A stretch of DNA of 48,166 nucleotides from a virus. Lineage: Duplodnaviria; Heunggongvirae; Uroviricota; Caudoviricetes. Made by a program: the position numbers and the translations under genes. Shown here in pieces: positions 35 through 46,878 of this stretch (positions within the stretch are counted from its first letter, which is position 1; every line of letters starts with the position of its first letter). The notes beneath the pieces are model-generated. The model worked only from the letters and a program-made list of their open reading frames with translations. It was not told the DNA's origin and did no database searches. The stretch lies in the IMG/VR virus record IMGVR_UViG_2639762987_000003. One strand, 5' to 3'.

Positions 35-37
35 ATT

Positions 38-625
38 TTATGCCACTTGCCAGAGAGCATCATGCAACTGGATACCTCCATTGCACTGGTTGCCCCAGCC
101 ATGCCAACCATCAGGTAAATCACCGCGAGAAAACAGCTCAATACGAGGAACATCACCTAACAGCCTTACCAGCTTGTCACGAACCACATCAGGCTTCCGA
201 GAATGCTCCAGACGAGGCGATGTAAACGACTGAATGATCCCCGCATCAAGGCGGGTCGGCAATTTGCCTTTTACCGCAAACAAGCAATCTTCACTGTTTG
301 CACGAGTCATATGCCCCATCCCCATCACCAGCTTATCTGGTTGTCGGCTACCACATTTGTTCCATGTGAAGCCCTTCATGGTCATAAGCCTGAATCCCCA
401 TGCTTTCACCACCAGCAACGCTTCTTCTGGCTGAGTCGGAACCCACCACATGGCCAACAAACACGATTCAGGATTAGCAAGCTGCCAGACAGGAATACGA
501 GCAATATCCTCAGCTTTCATCGTTGGATACTTAAAACCAGCTCCACGATTCCCATCCTTACACTTATCTTTGTATTCCCAGGGGGGATCTGCATAAATCA
601 GATTAAACAATGCAATTGCCTCCAT
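38..625 (-). CDS. DNA N6-adenine methyltransferase, MT-A70-like
   Basis: 195-aa ORF with DPPW motif (LIYADPPWEY) typical of MT-A70/Dam-like phage methyltransferases. Confidence 0.75.
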   Translation of the reverse strand: MEAIALFNLIYADPPWEYKDKCKDGNRGAGFKYPTMKAEDIARIPVWQLANPESCLLAMWWVPTQPEEALLVVKAWGFRLMTMKGFTWNKCGSRQPDKLVMGMGHMTRANSEDCLFAVKGKLPTRLDAGIIQSFTSPRLEHSRKPDVVRDKLVRLLGDVPRIELFSRGDLPDGWHGWGNQCNGGIQLHDALWQVA

Positions 626-933: not shown

Positions 934-1009
934 TGGTGGCCCCTACCGGATTTGAACCGATGACCGTGCGATTATGAGTCGCCTGCTCTAACCACTGAGC
1001 TAAGGGGCC
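934..1009 (-). tRNA. tRNA with CAU anticodon; acceptor, D and anticodon arms resemble E. coli tRNA-Ile2 (ileX-type), elongator tRNA-Met not excluded
   Basis: Reverse complement folds as a 76-nt cloverleaf: 7-bp acceptor stem GGCCCCT/AGGGGCC, D-arm GCTC-AGTGGTTA-GAGC, anticodon loop CTCATAA, T-arm ATCGG-TTCAAAT-CCGGT, terminal CCA encoded. Confidence 0.85.
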
Positions 1010-2797: not shown

Positions 2798-2830
2798 TAA
2801 AAAAAAAGCCCCGCCGAAAAAGGCAGGGCT
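2798..2830 (-). terminator. Rho-independent terminator immediately upstream of the holin start
   Basis: On the minus strand, 9-bp GC-rich stem (one G-U pair), 6-nt loop, followed by a run of 9 U. Confidence 0.65.
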
Positions 2831-2975
2831 TCATAAAGCAACAAATTACGCGGTAATCGCTTAACGCAGTTTTACTACGTTAAATGAAACACTACACCCA
2901 GTTACCACCTAAAACAAGGTTTCCCCATAAAAAAACCTTCATATCGTGGTTAATCGATCAATAAAAAAGCAATGT

Positions 2976-3167
2976 TCAACTTTTTACCAACTGAACATCC
3001 CGACCAGGACTTCCATAATATTCGCCGATATTCCACTGCTTAAGTTGAGTAATCTTCTCCAACTTAACTCCCACAGAATCCAATTTCTGCCATGTTTTCG
3101 GTTGTATGTGCCTCATTACCCGCTCTGAATATCTAAATACTGCTCGTAGCCTCGCTAAATTGCTCAC
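2976..3167 (-). CDS. Hypothetical small protein
   Basis: 63-aa ORF with GGAGG Shine-Dalgarno 6 nt upstream of a GTG start; overlaps the stop of the upstream gene. Confidence 0.4.
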   Translation of the reverse strand: MSNLARLRAVFRYSERVMRHIQPKTWQKLDSVGVKLEKITQLKQWNIGEYYGSPGRDVQLVKS

Positions 3168-5381: not shown

Positions 5382-5680
5382 GCCACAGCCCCTCTCAACG
5401 GCTTAACTTTGGCTAATAAGGTGTTAAACAACATGGAGTTAGGATTCATGCCAAATGGCAATTCCGGTTTAGCGGAGTAGTACAGGCAACCATTTATTTT
5501 CCTGGTTGTTATCTGTCCTTCGGCAACCATGCTTCTCAGTCTGCAACGCATAGAGTTCTGCGACACACCAATGTGCTCCGCGATTACGTCCACTTTTGAA
5601 CATGGGTGATCGGTCAGGAAATTAATCACATCTTGGGGGTTAATAATTTTGCGTTTCATTGTCGAGGCGTCCTTATACAT
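5378..5680 (-). CDS. Hypothetical protein, possible small DNA-binding regulator
   Basis: 100-aa ORF directly downstream of an AT-rich motif and a hairpin terminator. Confidence 0.4.
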   Translation of the reverse strand: MYKDASTMKRKIINPQDVINFLTDHPCSKVDVIAEHIGVSQNSMRCRLRSMVAEGQITTRKINGCLYYSAKPELPFGMNPNSMLFNTLLAKVKPLRGAVA

Positions 5681-5704
5681 TTGTATAAATATATAATTCT
5701 ATAT

Positions 5705-5726
5705 ACGGCGGGAGACGTCCCGCCGT
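5705..5726 (-). terminator. Perfect 9-bp GC-rich hairpin (terminator or RNA stability element)
   Basis: acggcggga-gacg-tcccgccgt, 10 nt after the stop of the 5737..6804 gene; no clean U-run, so termination efficiency is uncertain. Confidence 0.45.
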
Positions 5727-5736
5727 AGGCTTACTG

Positions 5737-6804
5737 TCAGGCTTTCAATAGCGATTCTTTTAGATATCGGGCATCAGCCAGGGCGTTTGGAGTAATCTTG
5801 CGAACCCATGCATTACGGGTTGGACTCCACTTAAAGGCGCGTGATTTAAGCAGCGAACGAATGTTTGCCTCTGGTTTGCCAGGGAAATAAAACAGGATGC
5901 GGTTATCCTCTGGATCTATCTCCATAGAAAAGCCGTCGTATTCTTCGCGCTGTGCTCCTGTTACAGACTTGACCGATTCAAGCTCCTTAATACGGCTCTG
6001 TAGTCGTTTGATTTCGGCGTTATTGTTGCTCAGTGCGTATGAAGGGAATCCGATGTGCCCACAGAAATCTCCGGCCAGTAACTCTTTGGCTTCGCTTTCT
6101 GTAAACCTGAGATCGATTAATGCAGAAAGCTGCTGTATTTGGTCTTTTTTGTATTTGCGAATGGCCTTATTTGCGGCCTTCATTTTGACGTGTGACTTCA
6201 TGCAGCCTTGCAGCTTACGAAGCAACTTAAATAGCGCATCAGGATCATCAGACGAAATTCCATTACGACCAACACCTGCGGCTTTGCTCTCGTAGTGTGA
6301 TGCTTTACTTTCGCATTCAACAAACGCTTTTCTGAATAACGCATCAGCTTTAGACAAACGGCGGCGATGGCCTTTCGCGCTATAATGGTCAACTAAAATC
6401 GGCTGGCCTAACGGGATCACATCCAACAGGTCATGCGCTCGCTTATGCGCTACCGCACCTTCTTTTCTGGCTTTTTCTGCACGAGCAATATATCGGGCAA
6501 GACGCGCGTTCTGGCGTTCCTGATAGGTGTTTACGTAATCATCTCCGCGCTGCTGCTGTTCAAGCCATGCTTTGCGCAGATCTTCTGTTACGTCCACCAG
6601 CTCCGCAGGGATACAACCAGTTTGGGCTTCATAAGAGTAACCATCCTCATAGATACGCCCATCGTCTTCAACAAAGAAAAAGGTTTCGTGCTCATCGCTT
6701 TTGACCATACGACCATTAACATGGCGTAATAGGTAGCCAGTATCAGTGCTTAACAGGCTGTTAGGGTTGTTGATCCAGTCAGAAATAATTACTTGTTTAT
6801 TCAT
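5737..6804 (-). CDS. Hypothetical 355-aa protein, first gene behind promoter cassette A
   Basis: Start set at the ATG 8 nt downstream of the cassette's GGAG; the longer track ORF (from 6858) translates the conserved leader. Confidence 0.6.
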   Translation of the reverse strand: MNKQVIISDWINNPNSLLSTDTGYLLRHVNGRMVKSDEHETFFFVEDDGRIYEDGYSYEAQTGCIPAELVDVTEDLRKAWLEQQQRGDDYVNTYQERQNARLARYIARAEKARKEGAVAHKRAHDLLDVIPLGQPILVDHYSAKGHRRRLSKADALFRKAFVECESKASHYESKAAGVGRNGISSDDPDALFKLLRKLQGCMKSHVKMKAANKAIRKYKKDQIQQLSALIDLRFTESEAKELLAGDFCGHIGFPSYALSNNNAEIKRLQSRIKELESVKSVTGAQREEYDGFSMEIDPEDNRILFYFPGKPEANIRSLLKSRAFKWSPTRNAWVRKITPNALADARYLKESLLKA

Positions 6805-6912
6805 CAGATTTCTCCGGTTTAACCAGGGCGGGTATCGCTCGGTTTCGGGTATAACCATAGGAAATTTTTTCCCACCTGTAAAGCACTTTTTATATAAATC
6901 TATAATTATATA
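6801..6912 (-). promoter_or_regulatory. Promoter-leader cassette copy A: TATAATTATA palindrome, -35 TTTACA, 17-bp spacer, -10 TATGGT, ~45-nt leader, GGAG, ATG
   Basis: Near-identical to 16776-16877 and 48055-48166; lies about 60 bp downstream of the Q-like gene. Confidence 0.6.
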
Positions 6913-6973
6913 TTTATAGATTTTCGATGTTCCCGATGTCTACACACCATCAAAACAGCTCAAAATGACACTT

Positions 6974-7351
6974 TTACTCTCTTCGCTTTTTCAAATAGTC
7001 GACAACATACGCCCTGGCTTTTGCCAGCTTCCGGCGATACTGTCTGAGGCTAAGAGAAAGGGCGTGGGCTTTATCAATATGCGGTGCATTTATGTCGAGG
7101 CCCCGAATCTCCCACGCCCCGTATTCAATTCGGACAACCAGCGCCGCAGTCTCATCAACTACCGTGAGGGCCGTCACCGCTCCCTCTATACTGGTTTCCA
7201 GTGAGTCATTTGGTGCGCCGCCCCCTCCGGTAAACTGGCAGCGCGTAACCATCATCATTTCTAACATCGACGCGAAACCGCTACGGGCGTTGCAGCCATT
7301 GCGCACCCACAGCGCCCATAGCTCAAACAAGCTATCCAGATCGCGTCTCAC
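6974..7351 (-). CDS. Putative Q-like antitermination protein
   Basis: 125-aa protein whose N-terminal pattern (MRRDLDSLFELWALWV) resembles small Q-family antiterminators; gene is followed immediately by promoter cassette A. Confidence 0.45.
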   Translation of the reverse strand: MRRDLDSLFELWALWVRNGCNARSGFASMLEMMMVTRCQFTGGGGAPNDSLETSIEGAVTALTVVDETAALVVRIEYGAWEIRGLDINAPHIDKAHALSLSLRQYRRKLAKARAYVVDYLKKRRE

Positions 7352-9343: not shown

Positions 9344-9461
9344 ACCACGATACGTGGTATTAAAACCACATATCGTGAGTTTTTCAATGGGCGAAACAAA
9401 AAATAACCTTCTATTTGTGGTCCACCTCTCGTCTTACCATGTGAAAACCACTAAATGTGGT
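9344..9461. promoter_or_regulatory. Operator cluster: ACCAC-N5-GTGGT palindromes at 9344-9358 and 9447-9461, imperfect site at 9365-9379
   Basis: Perfect inverted-repeat half-sites with 5-bp spacer in the divergent promoter region; the 9447 site abuts a TATAAA -10-like element before the repressor start. Confidence 0.65.
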
Positions 9462-10197: not shown

Positions 10198-10212
10198 ACC
10201 ACATTTTGTGGT
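10198..10212. promoter_or_regulatory. ACCAC-N5-GTGGT operator site next to a TTGACA -35-like hexamer
   Basis: accacattttgtggt immediately upstream of TTGACA, before the 10248 gene. Confidence 0.55.
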
Positions 10213-10627: not shown

Positions 10628-10650
10628 AGCGGGCTAACGCCCGCTTATAT
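10628..10650 (+). terminator. Rho-independent terminator-like hairpin
   Basis: agcgggc-taac-gcccgct followed by a T/A-rich stretch just after the 10248..10622 stop. Confidence 0.5.
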
Positions 10651-10750
10651 GATTATAGATTTATATAATTATATAAAACGCTTTTCATCAGCCAAAAAGT
10701 TGGTTATGCTTACCTCGTTCTATAAATATAGATTTATAGAATTATATAAC
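10651..10750. promoter_or_regulatory. Two AT-rich palindrome elements upstream of parA (perfect TATAATTATA at 10664-10673; variant TAGAATTATA at 10737-10746)
   Basis: Same motif family as at 23-32, 1159-1168, 6901-6910, 11429-11438 and 16866-16875. Confidence 0.55.
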
Positions 10751-10772
10751 CAAACACATGGAGCCTCGACAA

Positions 10773-11426
10773 ATGACTATCTCTGTAGGTATTTTCAACG
10801 GAAAAGGCGGCGTAACCAAATCAACAATTGCCCGTGCTTTAGCAGTTGCTTATGCAAAGGCTGGCTGGAATGTATGCCTGATCGATATGGATGTGCTTAA
10901 CGGAACGGTAACGCGTTGGGTACAACGCAGAATGGCCAACAATATCGAACCAGCAATCGCGGCGCAGCCGTGCGGCACACCATCACAAGTCCAGAAAATC
11001 ATCGAATCAGAAGTATACGACCTGGTTATCGTCGATGGCGGTGCCTACGCATCTGAATCAGTACCGAAGCTATCTGAATTTCTGGATATGGTTATTTTGC
11101 CAACCCGATTCTCTACCGATGACCTGGAAACCACCGTTAACACTGCTCACGGCATCGTTAAAAAGGGTGTACCAATCAAGAAAATTTGCATGGTGTTTTC
11201 CGGCGCGGCTGAAAACGAAGCTGACTATATTGAAGCCCAAGAGTACCTGGCTAATACGCCATACTTTGTTGTCGATAAGTACATTCCCCACAAGCCAGCT
11301 CTGAGCAAAGCTCAGGATAAGGGCTTAAGCCTCATTGAGTGCTCATACGTTGCGCCACGCAAAAAGGCAGACGACGTTATTCAGGGGATTATCAACCAGC
11401 TTGAGGCTCTGACTACTGCCGCATAA
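10773..11426 (+). CDS. parA: ParA-family partition ATPase (small type Ib)
   Basis: Deviant Walker A motif GKGGVTKST near the N-terminus; start set at the ATG 9 nt after GGAG. Confidence 0.8.
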   Translation: MTISVGIFNGKGGVTKSTIARALAVAYAKAGWNVCLIDMDVLNGTVTRWVQRRMANNIEPAIAAQPCGTPSQVQKIIESEVYDLVIVDGGAYASESVPKLSEFLDMVILPTRFSTDDLETTVNTAHGIVKKGVPIKKICMVFSGAAENEADYIEAQEYLANTPYFVVDKYIPHKPALSKAQDKGLSLIECSYVAPRKKADDVIQGIINQLEALTTAA

Positions 11427-11457
11427 TATATAATTATAGTTTTATAGATTTATATAA
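11421..11457. promoter_or_regulatory. AT-rich palindrome element (TATAATTATA at 11429-11438) between parA and the small downstream gene
   Basis: Motif family member followed by tatagatttatata. Confidence 0.5.
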
Positions 11458-11469
11458 GAGGGGATACAC

Positions 11470-11718
11470 ATGGCCGCACCATCAAAACCACCAAAGAAGA
11501 ACAGCAAAGGCGTACCGCCATCGATCGAACAACCGCAGGTTTTCGACCCGACTGAAACGCCAACCAGAACCAAATCAGGTGGGGCACAAATGGCGTTTAA
11601 CGTCGACCCTGAATTTAAACGCGAGTACAAAACGTTCGCCAGCTCAATGGATATGTCATTGAAAGAAGTGCTGACAAAGTCTTTTGAGTTACTCAAGGCT
11701 CAATACAACCAGAAGTAA
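11470..11718 (+). CDS. Small ParG-like (putative ribbon-helix-helix) partition partner
   Basis: 82-aa protein with a Pro/Lys-rich flexible N-terminus, directly after parA; fold assignment is inferred from size and position. Confidence 0.45.
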   Translation: MAAPSKPPKKNSKGVPPSIEQPQVFDPTETPTRTKSGGAQMAFNVDPEFKREYKTFASSMDMSLKEVLTKSFELLKAQYNQK

Positions 11719-11937: not shown

Positions 11938-11963
11938 CATAAAAAAAGGCCCCCGAAGGGGCC
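11938..11963 (-). terminator. Rho-independent terminator for minus-strand transcription
   Basis: Stem aggcccc/ggggcct with GAA loop, followed on the minus strand by 7 U. Confidence 0.65.
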
Positions 11964-11969
11964 TAATCG

Positions 11970-12092
11970 CTACTTGCTGCTAATGTTTATCGTCACATTC
12001 AGAGCGTTATCAGTAATCTTCCAACCCTCCCCATGTGGCGTAAACAAAGCCCCAGTAACAACGATAAAAATACACATACAGTATTTTTTCAT
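11970..12092 (-). CDS. Candidate 40-aa hydrophobic peptide (possible type I toxin or small secreted peptide)
   Basis: MKKYCMCIFIVVTGALFTPHGEGWKITDNALNVTINISSK; AAGGG 8-12 nt upstream of the ATG; own terminator downstream. Confidence 0.35.
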   Translation of the reverse strand: MKKYCMCIFIVVTGALFTPHGEGWKITDNALNVTINISSK

Positions 12093-12415
12093 TGTATGGC
12101 CCTTACAGGCCGTTTCACGGCATCCCCACCGACGAAAACAACGCGAGAGCAAGCACGGCTGCTTGTGCTTGCATGTACGGCAACGGAGAATCCTCCCCTA
12201 AAGTCGGTGCCCGGGTGCGAATCGGCGGGAAGGTCCACAGGTATTTTACGATTATTTTAAGATTAGTAATAGGAAAGAAATTAAACGAAAAAACTCGTTT
12301 ATTTTCACAAAATCAGTAACCTACCCACAATCTGTGAGTTTGCAGGCACAACAAGAACCACAATTTTTTGAAGCATAATAGTGGACTATTATTACCTTTT
12401 GGGTAAAATTAACTT

Positions 12416-12535: not shown

Positions 12536-12550
12536 CCCACGCTATGTGGT
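12536..12550. promoter_or_regulatory. Operator-like CCAC-N5-GTGG site upstream of the antirepressor leader
   Basis: cccacgctatgtggt, followed by TAAAAT (12560-12565) and TTGACA (12575-12580). Confidence 0.5.
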
Positions 12551-12585: not shown

Positions 12586-12682
12586 GCGCCATTGGTGGAC
12601 ACTTTCCGAGCCGTAGCAAAATCTACGGTCGGGATTGGAACCCCGTGGACACAATGGCGCATACCGCGTTAGCGGTTTTTTT
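12586..12682 (+). ncRNA. Candidate structured regulatory RNA domain (P1 c4-like antisense RNA analogue)
   Basis: 9-bp closing stem gcgccattg/caatggcgc (12586-12594 with 12652-12660) encloses a hairpin and the element GAUUGGAACC; ends with a short hairpin plus 7 T. Confidence 0.35.
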
Positions 12683-12848
12683 ATGCGTAAAGCACTGCTA
12701 CACCCAAATTATGGTGGGGCGTGCGGGGGAGTCGTAAGACTCGCCGGTTCGTCATTGTGTCCGGTAGTTCCAACCCTGCACGTCTCACCACCCAATGATT
12801 GGAACCTGACGGTGGTGAGTATCCTTAACCTTTAAGGGAATCATCACA

Positions 12849-13040
12849 ATGACAAACCTACCCCATGACTATTACGTCAACCTCGTAAAGATCCTTCTCA
12901 AGAAAGCCTCATACGCCGATAAATTCCGCCTGGCTGAAATCATCGAGCGCGAAGCTATGCGCATCGCCAGCAACGATAACGCTGTTTCTGACGCAAAAAT
13001 CTCCCTCGTAACCAAAGTAGTTATGGGAGGTGCAAAATGA
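12849..13040 (+). CDS. Small protein upstream of and overlapping ant (icd-like position)
   Basis: 63-aa ORF with AAGGGA 9 nt upstream; its stop overlaps the ant start. Confidence 0.4.
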   Translation: MTNLPHDYYVNLVKILLKKASYADKFRLAEIIEREAMRIASNDNAVSDAKISLVTKVVMGGAK

Positions 13041-14179
13041 AAACGCTTCCGACCGTTAACACCCTACAGCCTATCCTGCATAACCAGATCCCCGTTATCA
13101 CTAGTGAACTTCTGGCGCAGTTATACGGAACAAAAATCAAAAACATTTCTGATAACTTTCTGAACAACACGACGCGATTCGTAGCCGGAAAGCATTACTT
13201 TAAAATTGAAAAAAACGAATTACGCGAGTTCAAGAACAGACCCGAAACAATCGGGTTAGTTGGTAAAAATGCCCGCTCCCTAATTCTCTGGACCGAACGC
13301 GGGGCTGCACGTCACGCTAAAATGCTCGAAACCGATCAGGCGTGGGATGTATTCGAACGGCTGGAAGACTGCTACTTCAACCAGAACGCGCAAACGGCCG
13401 CGACCGTAACCGTCTCGCCAAACAATGCTCGTGAGGTTGTCGATACGCTCAACGCCAAACCGATGTTTTACATTAAGGTGTGCAATAACGAGCCACTCAC
13501 AACCTCAGCCGATGTTGCCCAAGCATTCAGCACCACAAACAATTCCATCGTTATGGCCATCGATGCGTTACGCATTCCTCGCACAGCTGCGGCGCGTCAT
13601 TTCTTTAAAGAGCAACGACCGTTGGAAGGAAGCGACCGCGAAATAACAATCTATCGCATGACAAAAGACGGATTTACCTTGCTCATGGAGAGTATCGACG
13701 GTCCAGGCGTGAAAGATATCAAGCTGGCCTACATTGAAGCCTTTAACGCTATCAGCAGCGTGTTAAAAACACAGTACGAGCGTGATCTGGCTAAACGACT
13801 GTACCAGGAAAAAACGATTATCCGCGCGGCAACAGAGCATAATCGGCTATTAACGGAACCGAACTACAGGAAGGAACTAATAAAGGAGTTTGACAAGGCA
13901 ACAGGGAAAACCAAAGCGGCGCTAAATCTGCCAGCAATGACTCAGGAAAATGTGATATCAGCCTTACTTCTTGATCTGCTCAGAAACGCCAGAGCACTTA
14001 TCAGCTTTGACGAAAATCTGAACCCTCAGCTCAAACTACTACCACCGACAGGCAAAGTAGTCGACCAAGCTGATCACAACAGCATACTCAGCGTACTGGA
14101 TGCAAACCTGCCAGCCAGGACACTACAGGAACTGATAAAAATATCTGCGGATAAACTGGCCGCAGGTGCAAAACCATAA
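13037..14179 (+). CDS. Antirepressor (Ant-like)
   Basis: 380-aa protein whose N-terminal region resembles antirepressor N-terminal domains (ITSELLAQLYGTK...RFVAGKHYFKI...LWTERGAARHAKML). Confidence 0.7.
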   Translation: MKTLPTVNTLQPILHNQIPVITSELLAQLYGTKIKNISDNFLNNTTRFVAGKHYFKIEKNELREFKNRPETIGLVGKNARSLILWTERGAARHAKMLETDQAWDVFERLEDCYFNQNAQTAATVTVSPNNAREVVDTLNAKPMFYIKVCNNEPLTTSADVAQAFSTTNNSIVMAIDALRIPRTAAARHFFKEQRPLEGSDREITIYRMTKDGFTLLMESIDGPGVKDIKLAYIEAFNAISSVLKTQYERDLAKRLYQEKTIIRAATEHNRLLTEPNYRKELIKEFDKATGKTKAALNLPAMTQENVISALLLDLLRNARALISFDENLNPQLKLLPPTGKVVDQADHNSILSVLDANLPARTLQELIKISADKLAAGAKP

Positions 14180-16284: not shown

Positions 16285-16387
16285 CCCAATGTAAGTTATC
16301 GGCTTGCCCCACAATAAGTTATCTATCTTCAAACGCCCCCTATATTAACACTCGCAAAGTGTCAAAATGACACTTTGCGCATTGTGT

Positions 16388-16768
16388 TTACTTAACGAGG
16401 AATAAAAATGGTTTATCGTTCGGCGGTGTAATCGGGGCTGGCTCGCTTTTGCTCATGCGATCAGTGTACCAGGCCAACTCCTTGTCAAAGTAAGCCTGAT
16501 TAAAATAGGCCATGAATGTGGTTTCAAATCCATAACGACCGCTAATACGCAGCATCTGATTGCCGTTCTCTGTTTCCAGATATACCTGGGCACGTTCCTG
16601 ATTCTCCTTCAGCCAGGTTAAAGCCTCATCGCACGAGGACAAACGATACTCATCATCGTAGCCGTCATCGATGCGGCTTGAAGAAGAACGGCAAATCACG
16701 CCAACAGAACCAGCCAGGATAGTTTGAATTTTAAGGAAAGCGTTTTTGCGGATTTTAATCATGCTCAT
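16388..16768 (-). CDS. Hypothetical protein, first gene behind promoter cassette B
   Basis: 126-aa ORF whose ATG lies 8 nt after the cassette's GGAG. Confidence 0.5.
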   Translation of the reverse strand: MSMIKIRKNAFLKIQTILAGSVGVICRSSSSRIDDGYDDEYRLSSCDEALTWLKENQERAQVYLETENGNQMLRISGRYGFETTFMAYFNQAYFDKELAWYTDRMSKSEPAPITPPNDKPFLFLVK

Positions 16769-16775
16769 CGGGTTA

Positions 16776-16877
16776 TCTCCGGTTTAACCAGGGCGGGTAT
16801 CGCTCGGTTTCGGGTATAACCATAGGAAATTTTTTCCCACCTGTAAAGCACTTTTTATATAAATCTATAATTATATA
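16776..16877 (-). promoter_or_regulatory. Promoter-leader cassette copy B (identical to copy A over 102 bp)
   Basis: Same -35 TTTACA / -10 TATGGT / leader / GGAG as copy A; contains TATAATTATA at 16866-16875. Confidence 0.6.
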
Positions 16878-16889
16878 ATTCTATGAGCA

Positions 16890-17822: not shown

Positions 17823-18113
17823 CTATTTTTGTGACTTTACTCCTGGCATATGGACTTCCCAGCGACGAATCCCCATAGCTGCGCAAAAATCAGCCACATA
17901 ATTCAATCCCGCCCATTCGCGGATACCACCACGGGCTTTTTCAATGAAAACGGCAATCCCTTTTTTATTGAGAGCAAAAAGCCGCCAGCTTTTTGTCACT
18001 TCGTCCTGGGTAGCCACAACACAAGTGAAAGCTCCCATGCGATACAGGTCCAAGAACTCTTTGCGTGTTTTGCGTACAAGTTCCATAACAAACCTCATAT
18101 TTGCATGTTTCAA
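17823..18113 (-). CDS. Hypothetical protein
   Basis: 96-aa ORF with start/stop overlap to the upstream gene. Confidence 0.4.
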   Translation of the reverse strand: MKHANMRFVMELVRKTRKEFLDLYRMGAFTCVVATQDEVTKSWRLFALNKKGIAVFIEKARGGIREWAGLNYVADFCAAMGIRRWEVHMPGVKSQK

Positions 18114-18409
18114 ACATCTGTTTTGTTATCAATGAAGATTAACCCTAACCCAGCGAAGTAACACAGCAGCGCCCAGGCTGCATACGGAATGCTGGATCTG
18201 GATGTGGACTCCTTTAACATCTGCCAGTTGCGAACATTGCGACTATCTTTTAAGCCTAGTTTTTTGGCCAACTGCGAGCCACTCATTCCGGTGAGGCCAA
18301 TGACTGCCCGAACTTCTCCACATGTAGGAGATTCCCATTCATCCGCTTTTTTTAAACAAGCCGGATTCAACATTTTTAAAACAGTATCTTTATCCATAAC
18401 CATCTCCAT
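18110..18409 (-). CDS. Hypothetical HTH-containing protein
   Basis: 99-aa ORF with HTH-like segment (MSGSQLAKKLGLKDSRNVRNWQ); directly downstream of the origin-like region. Confidence 0.4.
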   Translation of the reverse strand: MEMVMDKDTVLKMLNPACLKKADEWESPTCGEVRAVIGLTGMSGSQLAKKLGLKDSRNVRNWQMLKESTSRSSIPYAAWALLCYFAGLGLIFIDNKTDV

Positions 18410-18779
18410 TTATTATATCTACGATGGTAGGAAATCTTTTCCTATGTGGCAATAGAAATTTACTACATTGCGTATAAGACAAGTTTTCTATGTCTAATAG
18501 GAAATGATGTTTCTTACGTTTTATCGCGTTCTGATGGCTACTGTGTGCGTATTTCTCGACGTTTATTGATAAGGCTCGCCCCTTCCTCCTGCAAAGCCCG
18601 GCCGTAGGCCTTATTTCGGCCTTATATAAATTGATTTTGTATAGTTCGAAACGCGCCGTTTCGAAAAGGATGATCAGGCTGCTCCATGCCTCCGGCAAGT
18701 GCCGGAGGAGGTATATTTGAGCGTAGCGACTCGAACCGGCGCGAGCTTTAGCTCGCTGCAAGGGCGAACATATTCACAG

Positions 18780-20054: not shown

Positions 20055-20069
20055 ACCACGTTACGTGGT
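20055..20069. promoter_or_regulatory. ACCAC-N5-GTGGT operator site upstream of the repA leader
   Basis: accacgttacgtggt; same palindrome family as the repressor operators. Confidence 0.55.
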
Positions 20070-20484: not shown

Positions 20485-21048
20485 ATGCTGAATAATAAAG
20501 ATATGAATATTAATGAACTTAAAGACTGTATTCACTATGAAGTAATCGGTAGCGAGCGTCCTTTCTCCTGGCGAAAGGCAATTGTTCGCGCAATAAAACA
20601 TAGAAGGGTTCGTTATTTATTTTGGTGGCGCATAGCCAAATACCTTTTTGATAAAGGCGGATACTGTCGGAAGATTGCGGGAAAAATAGAACGTTTCATT
20701 CTTGATAAATATAATGTAACAGTCCCTTTAACTGTAAATATAGGGAAAGGCTTTGATATTTCTTATCTCAACAGTGTTGTTATCGGTCACAAAGTAACAA
20801 TCGGTGAAAATTGTTCAATTAAGCCCGGAGTAACTATTGGACTTCGCGGGGAATTTAATGATATGGATATTGTTATAGGGCATAATGTGACCATTGGTTG
20901 TAATGCCACCATTCTTGGTGGCAAAGTGCGTATAGGAAACAATGTCACAATAGGTGCTCATGCATTGGTATTGCATGATATTCCTGATGATTCAACATTC
21001 ATCACTAAATTTCAGTCTGAAGTTATCTGCTCGTCCTCCCGAACATAA
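20485..21048 (+). CDS. Hexapeptide-repeat (left-handed beta-helix) acyl/acetyltransferase; candidate moron
   Basis: Repeated [LIV]-G-x-x-x-x hexapeptides ([22 protein letters not shown]...[32 protein letters not shown]); AT-rich segment; converges on the tail-fibre assembly gene. Confidence 0.7.
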
Positions 21049-21629
21049 CCCTGATTCATCAGCTCTGGCCATACGATATCCGGAGCTGTACTGGTGTCAA
21101 TTCTACTCACTAATACTCTGTATTTTCTCCAGGAATCCAGTTGTGAATTTTCCTCGTTTGTTGCTATTTCAAGATTAACTGCATCCTGCAGAATTGCGAT
21201 GTTATCTGTTGCTTCCTGGATCAACCTTGCCTTTTTCTCTTCCGCTTCCCGTATCCGAAACAGTTTTTCTGCTTCCTCATCATTCACCCAGGATACGCCG
21301 TCCCACTTCTGATACTCCCCTGCTGGCGACAACCAGGTGACATTCTCTGGTAGCGGTCCGAGTTCAGAAATAAACAATGCGTCCCCCGACGCCACGTCAT
21401 AGACCGTTTTACCACGATGGTCTTCAACAATATTCCACGATTCATTTTCACTGTTAAAAACTGCCACAAAGCCAGCAGGAATTTCCGGTGGGGCGATATC
21501 TGTAGAATTAGCTGGCAGCCCTGTATGAGGTGGAATATATGCGTCACCTTCACCAATAAACTCATTAGTTCCGGCCAGCAGGTTATAAATTTTTACGGTA
21601 CGTGATTGTTCACTCATTCTGAATGCCAT
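21012..21629 (-). CDS. Tail fibre assembly chaperone
   Basis: 205-aa protein directly downstream of the tail fibre gene, typical Tfa size and position. Confidence 0.7.
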
Positions 21630-24475
21630 TATGCAAGCCTCACAATATAATTAAATGCGATGTTTTTAACGGTGTTTTCCGCGTTACCAGCAGCGTTAAC
21701 GGTGATGGTGTGTCCATGTGAACCAATCTTAACAGAGTGCGTATGAGCGCCAATACCAACAGTGTGTGCATGTGCCCCAGCACTTGTAGCGGTACCTGAT
21801 ACTGAGTGGGTATGTGCGCCAGAAGAAGGCACAGTTCCATTCCCCACCACCGTGCCACTTGATGAACCATCCAGCCAGTCGAAATTCATACCGCCACTGT
21901 TTGGTCTCCTTAATGGAACGGTATGAGTATGTGCGCCAGCACTATTTGCAGTACCAGATACATTGTGGGTATGTGCACCTGTGTTATTCGTTGATTTAGT
22001 ACCGTAATCAAACGACGATGTGGTTTTCGTACCCAAATCCGTACTGGATGCGCTGGCACTGTGGGTGTGCGATTTAATGCCATCCTGTTCCTGAGACAAT
22101 ACGGCCCGACCACTGGCGGGTTTGCCCTTGATTGTCCAGCCGCGCATATCTGGAATAACACCAGAAGGATAGGCAATAGCCAGTTTCGGATATGCTGCCT
22201 TATCAAACGTCTGCCCCTGCATGATTGCATAACCTGCAGGTGGCGTATCTGATGGCCACGGCAGCGGAACACCTGGCGGAAACGCTTCAATATTTGCCGA
22301 GCCGTCAAATTTTACGCCGTTAATTGTCCTTGCCGTTTTCAGCTTTGTTGCTGTAGCAGCATTGCCGGATAGTTCGCCTGAAAGACCACCGCTGAATGTC
22401 TGTTTCGCCATCCATGTCTGAGCTTCGTCGATAATTGGCACACGTCTTGTCGTGATCGTGCGGCTTCCCGGATTTCCTGAAATGCGAACCATAAAAAAGC
22501 GGTAGTTGGCTTTACTTACAGTGCTGCGCCATACATGCATTGAGCGTCCCGAACCAGAATCATCACTCGGACCGACTGAGATGTTTATCAGGTTGCCATC
22601 AATGACGCCCCAGTCCATACCGTCGGGAATATTGGTCATGTTATCAAGCCGAACGGTTATCAGACTGCCCGGCACAAAATCGTAGGTCTGCCAGTCCAGG
22701 CTGGTGAGCTTTGCCACAGCACCGCCGATACCCAGATTCAGGGGAAGTGAATACGAGGTGTAGACTTCCCGCCATTCGCTCCATGAGCTGCCGGTAAAGA
22801 CGCGCTCAAAGGTGCGGCCTTTAAGGGTTGTACCTGTTCCGGCAGTTGTATAACGCTGCCATACATTAACACCATCAAACCGCCTCAACACTTCCAGAAT
22901 GCCGAGTACAGTCACGCCGTTTCCGTCCAGTACTGGACCGTTGGTCGCTTTACCTGTAACGCTGTAAATACCTGGTGAGGTTACATCATTCAAATCACCT
23001 TCGTAATAACGACTCTCTGACTGATGACCGACTCTTAACCACGGTTCCCACTGCGGATTTGATGCATCCCAGCTTGCCGCAAGACAGCGGACATACATAT
23101 TTCCACGGCGAGTGGTATAACGTTGCGTTCTTCCATAATTTCCGCCTTCGAGGATCTCAAGCATCCCCTGAGCAAAGCCGCCTTCCTCTGGATAATTGCG
23201 TTCATATGAAGCTATAGCTGAGCTACTGTTACGCCATAAACCAAGATGCTCGGCGGCTCCAAGCGTATTCAGGTCTATAGTCGTACTCAAAGGGCGGGTA
23301 GCAGATTGAGTGTGACGCCATACGCCCCACGGACCATCAGTGCCATTCCACTTATTGGCGAGTTTACGCATGTATACATTGCCGCCTCCCGTGGTAAAGC
23401 GTTGCGTACCTGCAAAATTGCCGGCAGCAAAAACCTCAAGCACACCGACAGCATTATCTTCCGGGAAATTTTTCTCCAGTGTTGCGTTGGTGGATGTTGC
23501 TTTAGACCAGATACCTGAATAAGCCTTAACAGGACCAAACGTATTCAGATCAGCATCAAGCGGCATTTCGCCATTGTTTTTCATAAACGTCAGGCTGGTA
23601 ACGCCAACATTGTCCAGAAAAGCTGATTTATCCTGGATATCTGCACCGTTCTGATTTTTCGCCAGACGTGAATTTGCGTTGTCATTTGCTGCCTTGACCG
23701 CTTTTGGCGTTGCCGCCTGCGTTTCAGACGTACTGTTAGTGGCACTACTGAGCTGAACTATCCCTTTTTGTGCCGTGGTGGCATTCTGGGCGGTATATTT
23801 TCCGTCAGCCAGGTCATATGCAGCCTTAACAGCCTTAGGCGTCGCTGCGAGCTTTTCAGACGTGCTATTGGTGGCATTACTGAGTTGAACAATGCCTTTT
23901 GATGTTAAAGTTGCATCAGGATGATTACGTGATTGCTCATGTTTTACAATAGCTTGCTTAAGCCGCTTTGCTGAAACAGCCAGGGAATCATCTGTACCTG
24001 CATCAATTTCTTGTTCATTAGCAAATCTTGCTACTCCAACAACAGTTTCGGTTGCGGGAGGGTTAATAAACTCAACATCACCAAATGTAATGTTTTTAGT
24101 ATCAAGATTTTTAATTGCTATATCACTTGATATTAAAGCAATTGTAGAAGATGCTTTATTTATTATTACTTGTTCTTGCGAGTATACAGCAAACAATGTT
24201 CCTTTATTTGTATACAAACCTATTGTATGGACAGCATACTCATCTTTACTATCATCCTTCGCAGTTACATGAATGGTATCAGGAGAAACGACTTTGCCTC
24301 CTATTGTGGTAAGTCGCTTTATTTCATCTGTTATTTTTGTTTGTGTGGTTGATGTGGCATAATATCTACTACCTAAACCAACAGAAACGATCTCAACTTT
24401 ATTTGTTCCAGTCTTGTTGGCATTAACCAGCGCCTTACGCCCGGCGTCAGTCATCGTAAATAATAATTTACTCAC
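21629..24475 (-). CDS. Tail fibre protein
   Basis: 948-aa protein with His-rich GAH(T/A)H(S/T)V repeats at the C-terminus. Confidence 0.8.
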
Positions 24476-25087: not shown

Positions 25088-26204
25088 CCTCTAACCCCGC
25101 ATACTGGCAATTTATATTTCTCTCTCTGGCGACCTGTGTCTCTCCAATCACAGTAAAAACAGGACTTGATATTTCTAATCTTTTAGCCCCAGCATTTTTT
25201 AAACGTTGAATAATTTCATCTGGATTTATATCTCTTCCCATAACCGAACGTTGCCATTGTTTATACTCATCAATAGCTTTCTCAACCTCACTTTGAATTA
25301 AAGTTGTTCTGTTTTTGTCCGATGAGTTAATCCAGTATTTAATTATTATATCGTATTCAATGCTCTCTGGTTTCTTAACAAGAACTTTATCTGTGAATGG
25401 TCGAATATTAGTTGCAGAGAGAACGCTATTTATCTGCTCTAATAGTTCATTAGAAGGTATATCTCCGTTCTCTAACAAAGAACGGATTTCTACAATTCCG
25501 GGCGATGGTGTATATACATTCACATCTTTTATATTCTGATTGGCTGTTCTTGTCCAATATTTATAAGAATCCTCCGGCCCTGCTGTAGACAGTTTTTCCG
25601 GCGACAGTTTTATTCTTTCAGCATAATTATCATCTGACTCCGTATCAGCACCAGAATTAGATGTTGTTACATTCCTTACGCTGGAAACATACGGCAACGG
25701 AGTCACCAACTCATTTATTTGCCCTGGTAAAAAGCCATTCCCAGATAAACCAGGTATAACAGCATATCCTGAGACTGTACCAACTGTTTTCCCAGCAGGT
25801 ATTTCCAACAAAATATCTGTTTGGAAAATAACACCATTTCCAGTTGAAACTTGAGTGCCAGCAGGTATTGTATATATCCCCGATAATTTTGTTGACAGAT
25901 TAAACTCAAATGTAGTCAAGGCAGATTGAGCTTCCAGCCTAGGCGTATCCGTCAGATAGCCTATATGGTCGAGATATTCACCTTCACCATATGTAAGAAG
26001 GTTTTGTTTTGCAGAAAAATCGATAGCTTTTCTTTGCTGTATAATAATCTCACACAATGATAAGATGAATAATCTACGTGGATCAGCAGGTGCTAATGTT
26101 TCACCTGTTATACTCTCAAAAGCCCTGATTGAACGAGTTGTTATATCAGTCGGGTTAGAATCTGCGAAAGTAATATCTGGCAAACCACCACGCGGCAACG
26201 TCAT
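25080..26204 (-). CDS. Baseplate protein, gpJ-like
   Basis: 374-aa protein in the W-J-I order typical of P2/Mu-like baseplates. Confidence 0.65.
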   Translation of the reverse strand: MTLPRGGLPDITFADSNPTDITTRSIRAFESITGETLAPADPRRLFILSLCEIIIQQRKAIDFSAKQNLLTYGEGEYLDHIGYLTDTPRLEAQSALTTFEFNLSTKLSGIYTIPAGTQVSTGNGVIFQTDILLEIPAGKTVGTVSGYAVIPGLSGNGFLPGQINELVTPLPYVSSVRNVTTSNSGADTESDDNYAERIKLSPEKLSTAGPEDSYKYWTRTANQNIKDVNVYTPSPGIVEIRSLLENGDIPSNELLEQINSVLSATNIRPFTDKVLVKKPESIEYDIIIKYWINSSDKNRTTLIQSEVEKAIDEYKQWQRSVMGRDINPDEIIQRLKNAGAKRLEISSPVFTVIGETQVARERNINCQYAGLEDG

Positions 26205-28814: not shown

Positions 28815-31599
28815 AACTTAATCTCCGTTGTTGGAACATATGAGCACTCAATTTCTTCTCAAAATCAGAATATCCCGCATCTAATGCTCTTTTAGCTGCC
28901 GCCTCAGTTTCCTTTGGTGAACCAGCCGGAAGATTGATTACAGGTGAATAGGTTATTCCACCAGTCACAGCGTTAACGTTCTGGCGAGGTCCAGAAGTCC
29001 CGGCGGCAGATATCCCGTGAGGTGATAAATTTGATTGCCCGAACTTGCTTGCTATTGCATTCTGTAAGCTGTTATTCCTGCTAACACCTGATGCCAGAGT
29101 AGTCATTATTGCACCACCTGACTTTGTTAGCTGTGAGAATGGACCTTTTTTCGCGTCAGAGAACGGTAAATACTCACGTACAGAAGAAAAAACGCCTTTC
29201 ACTTCATTAATTAAAGCATTTGCTTTTGATTTTATCCCAGTGATTAACGTCTCAATTATTTTTGCGCCTGACTCACTCCAGTTTATTCCAGATAAATAAG
29301 TCGTTACAGATTGGAATGCTCTTATAAAGAGTCCAACTGGTGAAAAACGCATAAAAACAGATACCAGTGTATCTATGATTTTCTTTCCTGTTTCGCTCCA
29401 GTTAATGCCAGAAAGGTAATTTGTTGTAATTTTAAATGCTTTAATTAAGAACGGAAGCGGAGACATCCATTTAAAAGCACTAATTAATGTACTGTAAATT
29501 CTTACACCTGCCGAACTCCAGTTTATGTTGGAAAGATAATCCCATGCTTTACCAAACATAGATATAATCCATCCATTGAGGTCAAAGTTTAAGATAAAGT
29601 TTTTTATAGCCTCAAATGATTTAACTGTATATTCCTTAACAGAAGGCCAAACTCTGACAGCATAATCTCTGATCTTATCCCAATTCTGATAGAGCAATAT
29701 TCCTGCGGCAACCAGCGCAGATATAGCCATCTGAATCCACCCGAAGGGTGTTAGCTTTGTCGCTACAGATAAAGCCAGCATAGCTACCCTACACGCTATA
29801 ACCACACTTTTCATGGTTAGAAACGCACCTGCCGCCATCACTATCTGAGACACAAAATTGGGGTTGTTAGCTACAAATTCACTAATTTTTGTAATCAGCG
29901 GAACCAAAACACTAAGCGCGGCATTCAAAGCAGGTTGCAAGGCCTGACCAAAACTTAATGATGCATTGCTAGCCTGAATACGTAATTGTTTCAATCGCTC
30001 CGCATTATCTTTCGTTATGTTGGCAAAATCGCGGTCAATAACAGCACTTCCAGCTCCAAGAGATGTTGCTTTGATTCTCTGGTATTCCTTCCAGTTTTGA
30101 ATCATCGGACGAACAAAGTTCTGAACCTGCATATCGCCAAATAGTTCACCAAGTAACTTCTGATCTCCGTTCTTAGTCATTTTCATGACAGAATGCATTG
30201 CAGCTTCGAATGGATTCTTCCCTTTTTTCTGCGCTGTTGTAACAATTTTATATAAATCTACACCGAAATTTTTCTTTGCTTTTTTTAGTGTTTCAGGGGA
30301 AAGTATTTTTGCCAAAAAGTTGTTCATATTATTAGCAGCCTCATCCGAAGTTGCAGCCCCCTTGCGAGCTATCTGCAAAGCTGCACCCATCGTCGCGGCT
30401 GCTTCTTTACCTCCCATTTTTAATGCCTGGAACTGAGCACCAAGCACAGGAAGATTTTTGGCCATATCTTTAAATTCAAAGTTCCCCTCTTTCCCTGCCT
30501 GAACCAGAATCCCCATTGCAGACTTCATTTGAGATGGATCAATCTTCAATGAGTCACTTAATGTAAATGATGCTTTCGAGACATCGAGGATATCAGAGCC
30601 AGTAGCTGTAGCTGTTCGCCCAATAGTTAGTAGATTCGCCTGAGCCTCTTTATAATCCTGCCCAGCAGCGACGAGAAAACCCTGAGCGGCCTGAATATCA
30701 GATGCAAACTGGTTGGTAGCCGTTCCGGTAACAAGCATCGCCTGCCCCATCGCCTGAACTTCTTCCGGCTTCATATCTGCCGTAAGACCAATCATTTTGT
30801 TTTCACGATTGAAATTTGCTGCATTGTTAGCAGCAGCAAATGCACCAGCCGCTACAGCACCAGTTTGTAATCCTGACCTTACAAGTTGACTCTTTGCCTC
30901 ACCAAGATGCTCTCGCTTCAATTCACGCTGCCTTTCCAACGCGCGGTTTAACTCCTCCTGAGCACGTTTTACTGCAAGAACATTTTTCCGTGCTTCAGCC
31001 AACGCATTTTTATAGCTGTTAATTTTATCAATACGTTGTTTTTCTAATGCCCGGTTAAGTTCCTCCTGCTGTTTTTTCACTTGCTGAACATTTGCTCTGG
31101 CTAAAGCCAAAGCCGTTCTGTAGCGGTTAACCTGCTCAACGCTACGGGCCTGAGCCTCACGATTACGATCAATGCTGGCTTTAAGCTCTTTCTCTCTTGA
31201 GGCCAAAGCTCTGGCAGATGTATCAGCTCCCTGATAGGCAGACTTTAAAGCGGCCAGTTCTTCACGCTGAGAACGTAGTGATGCTCGTAAATTCGATGAA
31301 TGTGTTTTTGCCTTCTCAAAGTCACGAAGCATCGCTCTGGTTGGATTGGCCGTGTTTTTTATTTGCTTCTGTAACTCTTCAACGCGAGCGGCAGCTTTAT
31401 GATATTCGAGGGCAGTCTGTCCAACCTTTACTTTTACAGATTGTAGCTTTTGAATTTCCCCATGTTCTTTCGTTAATCCAGCAAGCTCGGCATTTAATTT
31501 AGCAACAGCCTGATTAGCTGTAGTAAAACTTTTGGGGAGAGAGGCGGCAACTTTGCCGCCAATTTCAAAAGCCAGCTTAAAGTTCTTATTGCTGGCCAT
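28807..31599 (-). CDS. Tail tape measure protein
   Basis: 930-aa protein with long coiled-coil N-terminal part and three SGINWSE(S/T)G...II(D/E)TL repeats. Confidence 0.85.
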   Translation of the reverse strand: MASNKNFKLAFEIGGKVAASLPKSFTTANQAVAKLNAELAGLTKEHGEIQKLQSVKVKVGQTALEYHKAAARVEELQKQIKNTANPTRAMLRDFEKAKTHSSNLRASLRSQREELAALKSAYQGADTSARALASREKELKASIDRNREAQARSVEQVNRYRTALALARANVQQVKKQQEELNRALEKQRIDKINSYKNALAEARKNVLAVKRAQEELNRALERQRELKREHLGEAKSQLVRSGLQTGAVAAGAFAAANNAANFNRENKMIGLTADMKPEEVQAMGQAMLVTGTATNQFASDIQAAQGFLVAAGQDYKEAQANLLTIGRTATATGSDILDVSKASFTLSDSLKIDPSQMKSAMGILVQAGKEGNFEFKDMAKNLPVLGAQFQALKMGGKEAAATMGAALQIARKGAATSDEAANNMNNFLAKILSPETLKKAKKNFGVDLYKIVTTAQKKGKNPFEAAMHSVMKMTKNGDQKLLGELFGDMQVQNFVRPMIQNWKEYQRIKATSLGAGSAVIDRDFANITKDNAERLKQLRIQASNASLSFGQALQPALNAALSVLVPLITKISEFVANNPNFVSQIVMAAGAFLTMKSVVIACRVAMLALSVATKLTPFGWIQMAISALVAAGILLYQNWDKIRDYAVRVWPSVKEYTVKSFEAIKNFILNFDLNGWIISMFGKAWDYLSNINWSSAGVRIYSTLISAFKWMSPLPFLIKAFKITTNYLSGINWSETGKKIIDTLVSVFMRFSPVGLFIRAFQSVTTYLSGINWSESGAKIIETLITGIKSKANALINEVKGVFSSVREYLPFSDAKKGPFSQLTKSGGAIMTTLASGVSRNNSLQNAIASKFGQSNLSPHGISAAGTSGPRQNVNAVTGGITYSPVINLPAGSPKETEAAAKRALDAGYSDFEKKLSAHMFQQRRLSFG

Positions 31600-44172: not shown

Positions 44173-44188
44173 CAGCGCCTCCTACACA

Positions 44189-46870: not shown

Positions 46871-46878
46871 TGTAAGAG

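Follow-up and report, generated by a model that had tools for sequence, protein, structure and literature searches.

Phage gene expression and plasmid partition are linked in the plasmid-prophage N15, where partition sites lie beside a Q-type gene and lytic promoters and couple the partition proteins to the expression of phage genes. Its partition system is of type Ia (SopAB), with 16-bp inverted repeats, and the dispersed SopB sites IR2 and IR3 reportedly adjoin gene Q and the late promoter p52. KorB of RK2 and omega of pSM19035 are plasmid-wide regulators which double as partition proteins. The sites of ParG consist of tetramer boxes separated by 4 bp, present in both orientations, and they have a double role as operator and centromere (PMC3130281). 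The Aca proteins described in the literature repress strong promoters as dimers by binding to inverted repeats that overlap the -35 and -10 elements, and Aca2 also binds RNA of the 5' untranslated region (5'UTR) (PMC12658196, PMC9638941); for Aca11, a single regulator acts at two near-identical promoters (PMC12658196). Q21 resembles region 4 of the extracytoplasmic function (ECF) sigma factors (10.1101/651190), and the AlpA element, GGGACG, is located at -25 to -20 (PMC9371919). Here we examine three near-identical promoter-leader cassettes carried by the Caudoviricetes record IMGVR_UViG_2639762987_000003, of which the whole stretch of 48,166 nucleotides is referred to as the window, and we compare them with these systems.

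We propose, with a probability of about 0.55, that the cassettes belong to a four-promoter regulon of an Aca-like autorepressor, and that they additionally bear partition-type arrays and a conserved 5'UTR hairpin.

A composite cassette in three copies

A repeat search of the window yielded one repeat family with three direct copies of 121 nt, at 6792-6912, 16757-16877 (88% identity over the whole frame) and 48046-48166 (97%), and the near-identity reported for them in the initial annotation is borne out, the copies either matching exactly or differing by a single base over the stretch from array to GGAG. Each copy, read along the minus strand, has in order an AT-rich array, TTTACA, 17 nt, TATGGT, a leader of about 45 nt, GGAG and ATG. 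The start codons lie at 6804 (355-aa DUF3560 protein), 16768 (126 aa) and 48058 (89 aa); the distance of 8 nt from cassette end to ATG, earlier given for all three, applies to copy B and is 7 nt in copies A and C.

6792-6922, minus strand: cassette A as a whole, with array, promoter, operator, 5'UTR, Shine-Dalgarno (SD) sequence and start codon of the DUF3560 gene
16757-16887, minus strand: cassette B as a whole, located after the terminator of the higA-like gene and predicted to drive the 126-aa gene
48046-48166, minus strand: cassette C as a whole, crossing the circular junction into window positions 35-42 and predicted to drive the 89-aa and 66-aa genes
6812-6815 and 6802-6804, minus strand: SD GGAG and ATG of A, from the sequence
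16777-16780 and 16766-16768, minus strand: SD and ATG of B, from the sequence
48066-48069 and 48056-48058, minus strand: SD and ATG of C, from the sequence
6854-6882, minus strand: core promoter A, with -35 TTTACA (6877-6882), a 17-nt spacer and -10 TATGGT (6854-6859)
16819-16847 and 48108-48136, minus strand: core promoters B and C, of the same layout as A
6858-6874, no strand assigned: putative operator O_pal, TGGGAAAAAATTTCCTA, in the spacer, its last TA being the first two bases of the -10 element
16823-16839, 48112-48128 and 18428-18444, no strand assigned: further copies of O_pal, from dyad comparison
18424-18452, minus strand: fourth O_pal promoter, TTGCCA-17-TACCAT, lacking both array and hairpin leader

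The first 34 bases of the window are identical to bases 48133-48166, which implies that the contig is circular, that the replicon measures 48,132 bp and that cassette C spans the junction. As read from the PGAP annotation and family scans, the window encodes plasmid functions (RepA, a HigB/HigA-like pair and ParA), an XRE/S24 CI-like repressor with a divergent early operon that includes Ref nuclease, DUF1064 and a 125-aa protein, lysis and other functions (holins, endolysin, a tRNA and an MT-A70 methylase) and packaging and structural proteins (three ParB/Srx proteins, terminase, HK97-type head and P2-like tail), and this combination of plasmid and phage genes defines the element as a phage-plasmid. 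It belongs to a family of non-mobilizable plasmids of about 47-50 kb which is represented by 65 records in PLSDB and occurs in 74 complete genomes of E. coli, among them that of the reference strain ATCC 25922 (plasmid NZ_CP009073), and three cassette copies were found in nearly all members, with a median of three places per genome. The Yersinia phages vB_YpM_39/41/44 are 99.5% identical to the window, and no paper mentioning them was found in a literature search. Although this phage-plasmid of about 48 kb is frequent in E. coli and, in the form of vB_YpM_39/41/44, infects Yersinia pestis, its regulation has hitherto been unannotated. Serratia plasmid pJSRIV006_2 shares the maintenance and early backbone of the window and carries lambda-like structural genes instead, and further cassette copies occur in the metagenomic relatives L028 and L033 and in Yersinia L032. 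The pSLy3 group, a member of the SSU5 supergroup of about 100 kb, was set aside as a different element.

The same three copies recur from one related plasmid to the next and, between E. coli and a Salmonella relative, the cassettes are about 88% identical, compared with about 74% identity elsewhere in the genome; together these results exclude chance. Comparison of the sequences from Salmonella, Serratia, Yersinia and metagenomic relatives identifies the three repeats as copies of one composite regulatory cassette with four parts, an architecture that persists in lineages whose cassette sequences are otherwise unalignable. In Serratia pJSRIV006_2 there are three cassettes complete with array, -35 element, dyad, -10 element, hairpin leader, AAACCGGAGA and ATG, together with a fourth promoter that has the dyad only. 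An ATG within the -10 element, which would give longer open reading frames in A and C, was rejected as a start codon; relatives with TAAGGT do not retain it, and in copy B a stop codon is present.

The promoter hexamers alone are not significant, matching at 9 of 12 positions, a level that is met at chance frequency. Across about 40 copies, the -35 element is invariant and the -10 element conforms to TAnnGT, with TAAGGT, TAGTGT and TATTGT in relatives, and an A-tract lies just upstream of the -35 element; judged by these sequence features, the cassette is a good sigma-70 promoter. O_pal is a 17-bp dyad, T(A/G)GGA-N7-TCCTA, centred near -19/-20; in every copy and lineage it extends across the spacer into the -10 element, of which it includes the first two bases. 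It takes the form TAGGAAAATATTTCCTA in Salmonella, TAGGAATAAAATTCCTA in a Yersinia metagenome-assembled genome, TAGGACTAAAAGTCCTA in L028 and L033 and TAGGAAAAAAAGTCCTA in Serratia, and the half-sites co-vary between lineages (GGAAA/TTTCC, GGAAT/ATTCC and GGAC/GTCC). Since the two halves change together, the dyad probably accommodates a two-fold symmetric binder. The fourth O_pal promoter is also kept in Salmonella and, in L003 and L029, it lies directly upstream of a homologue of the window's 99-aa protein p99, considered below.

The fourth part of the cassette is the leader, which from about +1 reads GAAACCGAGCGATA(CC/GT)CGCCCTGGTTAAACCGGAG in both E. coli and Salmonella copies, part of the comparison set having been gathered with a pattern that fixes those leader bases. 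It is predicted to form a hairpin.

6821-6844, minus strand: two-tier 5'UTR hairpin AACCG-A-GCG-AUACC-CGC-CC-UGGUU, its six shared pairs 100% paired
16786-16809 and 48075-48098, minus strand: hairpins of copies B and C, as in A

The hairpin has a 5-nt loop, ends a few bases before the SD sequence and has a predicted energy of -9 to -10 kcal/mol; leaders of Serratia, L028 and L033 adopt the same shape with other bases. When the count is limited to the six pairs common to the hand and MAFFT alignments, which are offset by one column, compensatory changes are seen in three of the six (AA/UU to GG/CC, and G-C to A-U) and every cell of the comparison pairs; the G-U pairs are compatible with the sense RNA only. 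Recognition of the loop by a specific protein seems unlikely, since loop sequences differ among copies of a single genome. A scan of the whole window against Rfam at gathering thresholds gave only ryfA, C4, isrK and tRNA, none of them in the cassettes. Two other views of the leader were discarded: as an attenuator or terminator it lacks a U-tract and folds weakly, and its direct repeat ATACCCG, with two occurrences, is not kept in Salmonella. We consider, with low confidence, that the conserved hairpin at the start of the transcript would probably act as a 5' stabiliser or as a translation-initiation context, and this is a weaker step of our proposal than the others.

Downstream of each cassette lie one or two genes and a terminal hairpin.

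5737-6804, minus strand: cargo A, DUF3560 protein whose C-terminus is primase-like, with a GC-rich hairpin after it at 5704-5727
16388-16768, minus strand: cargo B, 126-aa protein, followed by a 12-bp hairpin at 16353-16379
47592-48058, minus strand: cargo C, 89-aa and 66-aa proteins, from gene calls
47547-47570, minus strand: canonical intrinsic terminator at the end of the first C unit, with a second at 46850-46871

The hairpins that close the units are stable (-19 to -21 kcal/mol). Those of A and B lack U-tracts, and the terminators of cassette C are located about 490 and 1190 nt downstream, after two and five small genes, respectively. The cargo differs by lineage, with that of the window having no homologue in Serratia, and the exception is the 126-aa protein, an orthologue of which follows the L033 cassette. 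Nothing informative was found for the cargo proteins in Pfam, PHROGs, NCBIfam, PADLOC or PDB, nor was any functional literature on DUF3560 found in a literature search. From its layout, each cassette is, together with its one or two lineage-variable genes and hairpin or terminator, a moron-like unit.

Candidate regulators of the dyad and of the arrays

The protein that best accounts for the dyad is encoded under the fourth O_pal promoter.

18110-18409, minus strand: p99, an Aca-like helix-turn-helix protein of 99 aa and candidate O_pal repressor; the likely true start is at 18397 (95 aa, as in PGAP)

A profile of the p99 family matched, in PDB, the helix-turn-helix/Aca domain of AcrIF24 (E 6.7e-8) and Aca3 (E 0.005). 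When the AlphaFold2 model (pLDDT 82.6) was submitted to Foldseek, the best match was again AcrIF24 (TM 0.68, 31% identity), followed by Aca1 bound to palindromic DNA, with further matches to Aca2 and to controller and HipB/HigA helix-turn-helix proteins. The first gene under the fourth O_pal promoter is p99 in each of the three complete lineages, namely the window, L003 and L029. Six loci cover the RepA-ParA region: these three contain p99 as well as O_pal, L026, L030 and L031 contain neither, and a gene for the 125-aa protein is present in all six. On account of the Aca similarity, the location of the gene under the fourth promoter, the co-occurrence and the behaviour of published Aca proteins, we assign O_pal to p99 as its probable autorepressor; the autoregulation we infer solely from the position of the gene downstream of an O_pal promoter.

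In the mechanism we propose, a p99 dimer would bind O_pal at the spacer and the upstream edge of the -10 element and, because its gene lies under the fourth O_pal promoter, p99 would also repress itself. The four promoters would then constitute one small regulon, firing when no repressor is present, for example on entry into a new cell, and being throttled as p99 accumulates. The near-identity of the copies would be kept by selection for shared operators combined with gene conversion between copies. A sign of gene conversion is that clade-specific changes (C to A, CC to GT and G to A in the dyad) are found in all three copies of a given genome and, moreover, two SD-ATG spacers, AAATCTG and ATAACCCG, are swapped among the copies in different plasmids.

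The remaining part of the cassette, the AT-rich array, had been described as containing a TATAATTATA palindrome. That sequence is not a discrete site; it forms part of an array of boxes with an 8-bp period that recurs at parA and elsewhere in the window.

6892-6922, no strand assigned: array of cassette A (TATA/TAGA boxes, 8-bp period), with the same box type as upstream of parA
16857-16885 and 48146-48166 (continuing at 35-42), no strand assigned: equivalent arrays of B and C, from repeat comparison
10634-10748, no strand assigned: two arrays upstream of parA (10634-10675 and 10707-10748), putative par operator/centromere, in 8-bp register
11428-11470, 5662-5703 and 1137-1186, no strand assigned: further arrays, in 8-bp register
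10773-11426, plus strand: ParA-type ATPase (Pfam CbiA, ParA and MipZ; PHROG ParA-like)
11470-11718, plus strand: 82-aa ParG-like protein and candidate array binder, from profile comparison with PDB and homologues

The arrays outside the cassettes are all intergenic, with copies offset by 8 bp, and that at 11428-11470 fills the gap between parA and the 82-aa gene. Arrays with 8-bp spacing also occur at the par operons of L026, L028, L029 and L004. More diverged relatives keep the arrays with other boxes (GATATAAA/GATATATT in L028; TAAATAAA/TATTTAAT in L026, L029 and L030), and within each genome the promoter-associated arrays match those close to parA, while the box type changes between lineages. 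The small proteins of the lineages are homologous and differ in the predicted beta-strand. A profile of the 82-aa family has a sole PDB match, ParG of TP228 (1P94), over the ribbon-helix-helix region with an E value of 0.58, and one homologue gave a weak match to the HicB ribbon-helix-helix family. No Pfam family, ParG included, matched the 82-aa protein, and a tblastn search with it against plasmids, for which the query is too short to reach the 24-kb plasmids mentioned below, returned only the family itself and Serratia.

Because every lineage has the same kind of array in its cassettes as upstream of its parA gene, we consider that the arrays are probably the sites of a ParG-like ribbon-helix-helix partner of ParA. 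By coating the arrays, this protein would tie the promoters to the partition system or, alternatively, provide extra centromere-like sites.

Other occurrences of the arrays were also recorded. A 24-kb plasmid encoding a type IV secretion system (T4SS) carries a homologous ParA and small protein, with similar arrays both at the par genes and inside the virB cluster. In this conjugative plasmid (L004, NZ_CP101202) TATA-box arrays are located at 11200-11234 and 12973-13007, intergenic in the virB operon, and one of the virB-operon arrays stops 10 nt before virB10, which suggests that the ParG-like protein regulates transfer genes. In the window, the array at 1137-1186 lies upstream of the tRNA gene at 937-1009 (minus strand), and the 99-aa open reading frame at 836-1135 which overlaps the tRNA is probably spurious. 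Furthermore, a short conserved segment for translation initiation, GG(A)nnCCTCGACA(A)ATG, directly follows arrays at several unrelated genes, including a MarR-like 100-aa gene and parA (window 5681-5703 and 10749-10775; L028 6360-6390; L029 27700-27730); as read from these occurrences, it is a second, smaller portable module of array and ribosome-binding site.

Competing explanations

Several results weigh against the autorepressor regulon. In E. coli the cassettes have weak -10 elements (TATGGT and TAAGGT), such as would also suit an activator-dependent promoter. The phyletic test amounts to only about four independent lineages, and we infer every assignment of a protein to a site. The ParG-like label has no significant sequence support of its own (E 0.58 and no Pfam match). 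The hairpin does not stand out by its folding energy (z -1.2 to -2.0), it is missing from the Yersinia copy, and its covariation was observed in three lineages, the very ones whose sequences had served to derive the structure. Finally, no cargo protein matched a known defence or anti-defence family in the databases scanned, and the analogy with acr-aca loci therefore stops at the regulator.

The initial annotation had taken the cassettes for Q-dependent late promoters served by the 125-aa protein, a model that we judge unlikely.

6974-7351, minus strand: 125-aa 'Q-like' protein, the last gene of the CI-controlled early operon

On this model, the Q21/AlpA-like protein binds a site within the spacer, loads onto RNA polymerase that has paused close to the promoter and permits readthrough of downstream terminators into the lysis and structural genes, and it could act together with p99 repression. 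The protein belongs to a narrow family of 31 clusters and has no Pfam domain; by sequence it falls in no Q family (PF03589, PF06530 and similar), and the family profile matched no solved Q protein. Among its homologues, weak matches were obtained to Sigma70_r4_2 (5 of 23) and to PF06530 (1 of 23, E 0.07), and there was a full-length, sub-threshold match to the NCBIfam PA0613 family, for which the literature search found no functional description. These weak scores hint at a fold resembling sigma region 4, Q21 and AlpA. Given the likeness of Q21 to ECF sigma region 4, the fold evidence is compatible with a Q-type factor and does not discriminate. A 125-aa gene following NinH in Serratia (L029, 34152-34529) was considered as a counterpart and is not homologous, the real homologue lying at 25427-25792.

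The position of the gene was correctly described, its stop codon lying about 50-60 bp upstream of cassette A (about 60 bp had been claimed), but copies B and C have no Q-like gene as neighbour, and one cassette and the fourth promoter sit among maintenance genes. Two canonical terminators do follow cassette C, as a readthrough model would have it, yet the leader contains no terminator and shows no recognisable pause element of the sigma-dependent kind: when the leaders were aligned and inspected, a conserved -10-like nAnnnT/TAnnnT motif was seen between +1 and the SD sequence in no lineage, and the suggestion that the leader acts as a pause element is not supported. Lastly, the left half-site GGGAAA/AGGAC resembles the AlpA motif and occupies the same position, in a system that is likewise under LexA-like triggering (PMC9371919). 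The spacer element is, however, a co-varying dyad, the Q-like gene also occurs in lineages without the cassette and the phyletic pattern favours p99. What stands of the Q-dependent claim is the promoter-leader reading and the gene position; Q is not the best-supported controller, as it is p99 that tracks the dyad.

Two further observations concern the Q-like gene. A noncoding island at 2800-2990 (minus strand) shows 85% identity to Salmonella as against 74% genome-wide and carries a strong terminator at 2805-2832 immediately before the holin gene; this arrangement, resembling lambda PR'-tR', is an alternative candidate target of the Q-like protein. In lineage L026, a unit of promoter, array, leader and terminator is located about 700 nt after the Q-like gene.

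A more elaborate scheme, which we regard as speculative and improbable, treats the cassette as a promoter with three inputs, such that the partition protein on the array would report the state of the plasmid, the Aca-like repressor would report the time since entry, and the Q21/AlpA-like protein would load at the same spacer element for lytic readthrough of terminators. If this were true, the cassette would be a portable module that switches accessory and late units between the plasmid and virus lifestyles, and the ParG-like protein would act globally in the manner of KorB, as a regulator that small conjugative plasmids with a T4SS have as well.

It is distinctly less probable that O_pal is an activator site, at which a dimer of p99 or of the sigma-region-4-like 125-aa protein, bound at about -19, would compensate for a weak -10 element at middle or late promoters. 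The -10 elements of E. coli are indeed weak and variable (TATGGT, TAAGGT and TAGTGT), and the Lpa box of the phage P1 late promoters occupies a position similar to that of the dyad centre at -19/-20. Against this, the -35 elements are good and the 17-bp spacing is optimal, the dyad covers the first two bases of the -10 element in an occlusion geometry and the closest characterised relatives of p99 are all repressors. Moreover, the -10 elements of Serratia, Yersinia and L028 are near-consensus (TAATAT and TATTAT), which implies that no activator is needed. The dedicated activator site entertained in the initial annotation came close in spirit, but the dyad and the co-occurring Aca-like protein point to a dedicated repressor.

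That the copies share no regulation, their identity reflecting recent duplication or gene conversion of a promoter-SD segment or a recombination 'linker' at module boundaries, would fit the active gene conversion evident from concerted evolution and swapped SD-ATG spacers and the varying cargo and upstream context among relatives (e.g., L022), but we find it barely credible in view of the higher conservation of the cassettes than of the genome between clades (about 88% as against 74%) and of a four-part layout with co-varying dyad and hairpin in unalignable lineages, a pattern that gene conversion cannot yield.

The autorepressor reading leads to a concrete proposal for a regulon of four promoters with one Aca-like repressor and a partition-type array. 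If Aca-type control is extended in this way beyond anti-CRISPR loci to dispersed cargo, the three cargo gene sets become candidates for establishment or anti-defence functions.

Other features of the window and comparison with described systems

Direct control of the cassettes by CI was considered and rejected: operators of the form ACCAC-N5-GTGGT occur at 9344, 9365, 9447, 10198 and 20055, and none lies in a cassette. These CI-type operators are placed in the cI/early intergenic region (9344-9461), before the operon of the 124-aa gene and parA (10198-10212) and just upstream of repA (20055-20069), which suggests that genes for replication and partition of the plasmid are likewise under the control of the phage repressor. 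A further, near-perfect CI operator at 12536-12550 adjoins a region in which the Rfam matches isrK (12610-12682) and C4 antisense RNA (12707-12795), both on the plus strand, lie just upstream of a 63-aa open reading frame and an ORF6N/Rha anti-repressor (13037-14179, plus strand); from its gene order and RNA matches, this region is a c4-icd-ant module like that of P1 immI. A full-length match to ryfA RNA (141.8 bits; 11942-12238, minus strand) adjoins the par genes and may represent a small-toxin or sRNA maintenance element of the plasmid.

The three ParB/Srx-domain proteins (207, 459 and 196 aa) are encoded at 42305-46185 (minus strand) upstream of the small terminase, with an AT-rich noncoding gap of about 550 bp among their genes (42896-43452), and they may function in packaging or late-gene control. 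In the tape-measure gene, at 29258-29539, there are three in-frame 42-nt repeats spaced at exactly 120 bp, as is typical of tape-measure proteins. A DNA invertase of the Hin/Gin type (20485-21048, plus strand) adjoins tail-fibre and tail-fibre-assembly genes (21012-24475, minus strand) and related plasmids carry alternative fibre segments in inverted orientation, which together point to a host-range switch.

Of the described systems, the acr-aca loci (Aca1, Aca2, Aca3, Aca7, Aca11 and the C-terminal domain of AcrIF24) provide a close parallel. The candidate regulator is here, too, a small XRE-type helix-turn-helix protein, a predicted dimer with significant similarity to the AcrIF24 C-terminal domain and Aca3; a strong promoter has its core elements overlapped by the inverted repeat, the gene of the regulator itself lies under an operator promoter and, as for Aca11, one regulator would serve several near-identical promoters. 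In contrast to those loci, the aca-like gene heads an operon of its own that also includes a higBA-like pair, rather than coming last behind acr genes, the four promoters are distributed over a 48-kb phage-plasmid, the cargo is unlike known Acr or anti-defence proteins and the promoters bear partition-type arrays and a conserved 5'UTR hairpin as well.

With the PR'-qut regions of lambda and phages 21/82, and with AlpR-AlpA-PalpB of P. aeruginosa, the window shares a LexA/CI-like cleavable repressor over an operon ending in a small protein with a possible fold of the sigma region 4, Q21 and AlpA type, just downstream of which lies a promoter whose spacer contains a conserved element, with intrinsic terminators further on. 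It differs in that no homology to Q families was found by sequence, there is neither a recognisable pause element nor a terminator before the first gene, the spacer dyad tracks another protein and there are three or four promoter copies instead of one.

The likeness to the type Ib ParF-ParG/parH-OF system of TP228 resides in a ParA-type ATPase gene followed by one for a small protein with a disordered N-terminal tail and a predicted ribbon-helix-helix, and in 4-bp boxes at an 8-bp period, direct and inverted, upstream of the operon, where they could act as operator and centromere (PMC3130281). The boxes of the window are, however, TATA/TAGA in pure AT sequence where those of TP228 are ACTC, the arrays occupy about eight dispersed sites, three of them upstream of unrelated promoters, and the homology to ParG is not significant. 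As for KorB and omega, many putative operator copies are spread across the replicon at promoters of unrelated operons, and in the T4SS plasmid they reach into virB; the protein family differs from that of KorB.

Finally, as in N15, the element is a plasmid-prophage with dispersed putative partition sites beside a Q-like gene, and it differs from N15 in having a type Ib-like system with arrays of short boxes and a separate Aca-like operator. The comparison suggests that promoters of phage and T4SS genes contain sites for a partition protein of type Ib, and this would constitute a second case, after N15, of coupling between partition and gene expression.

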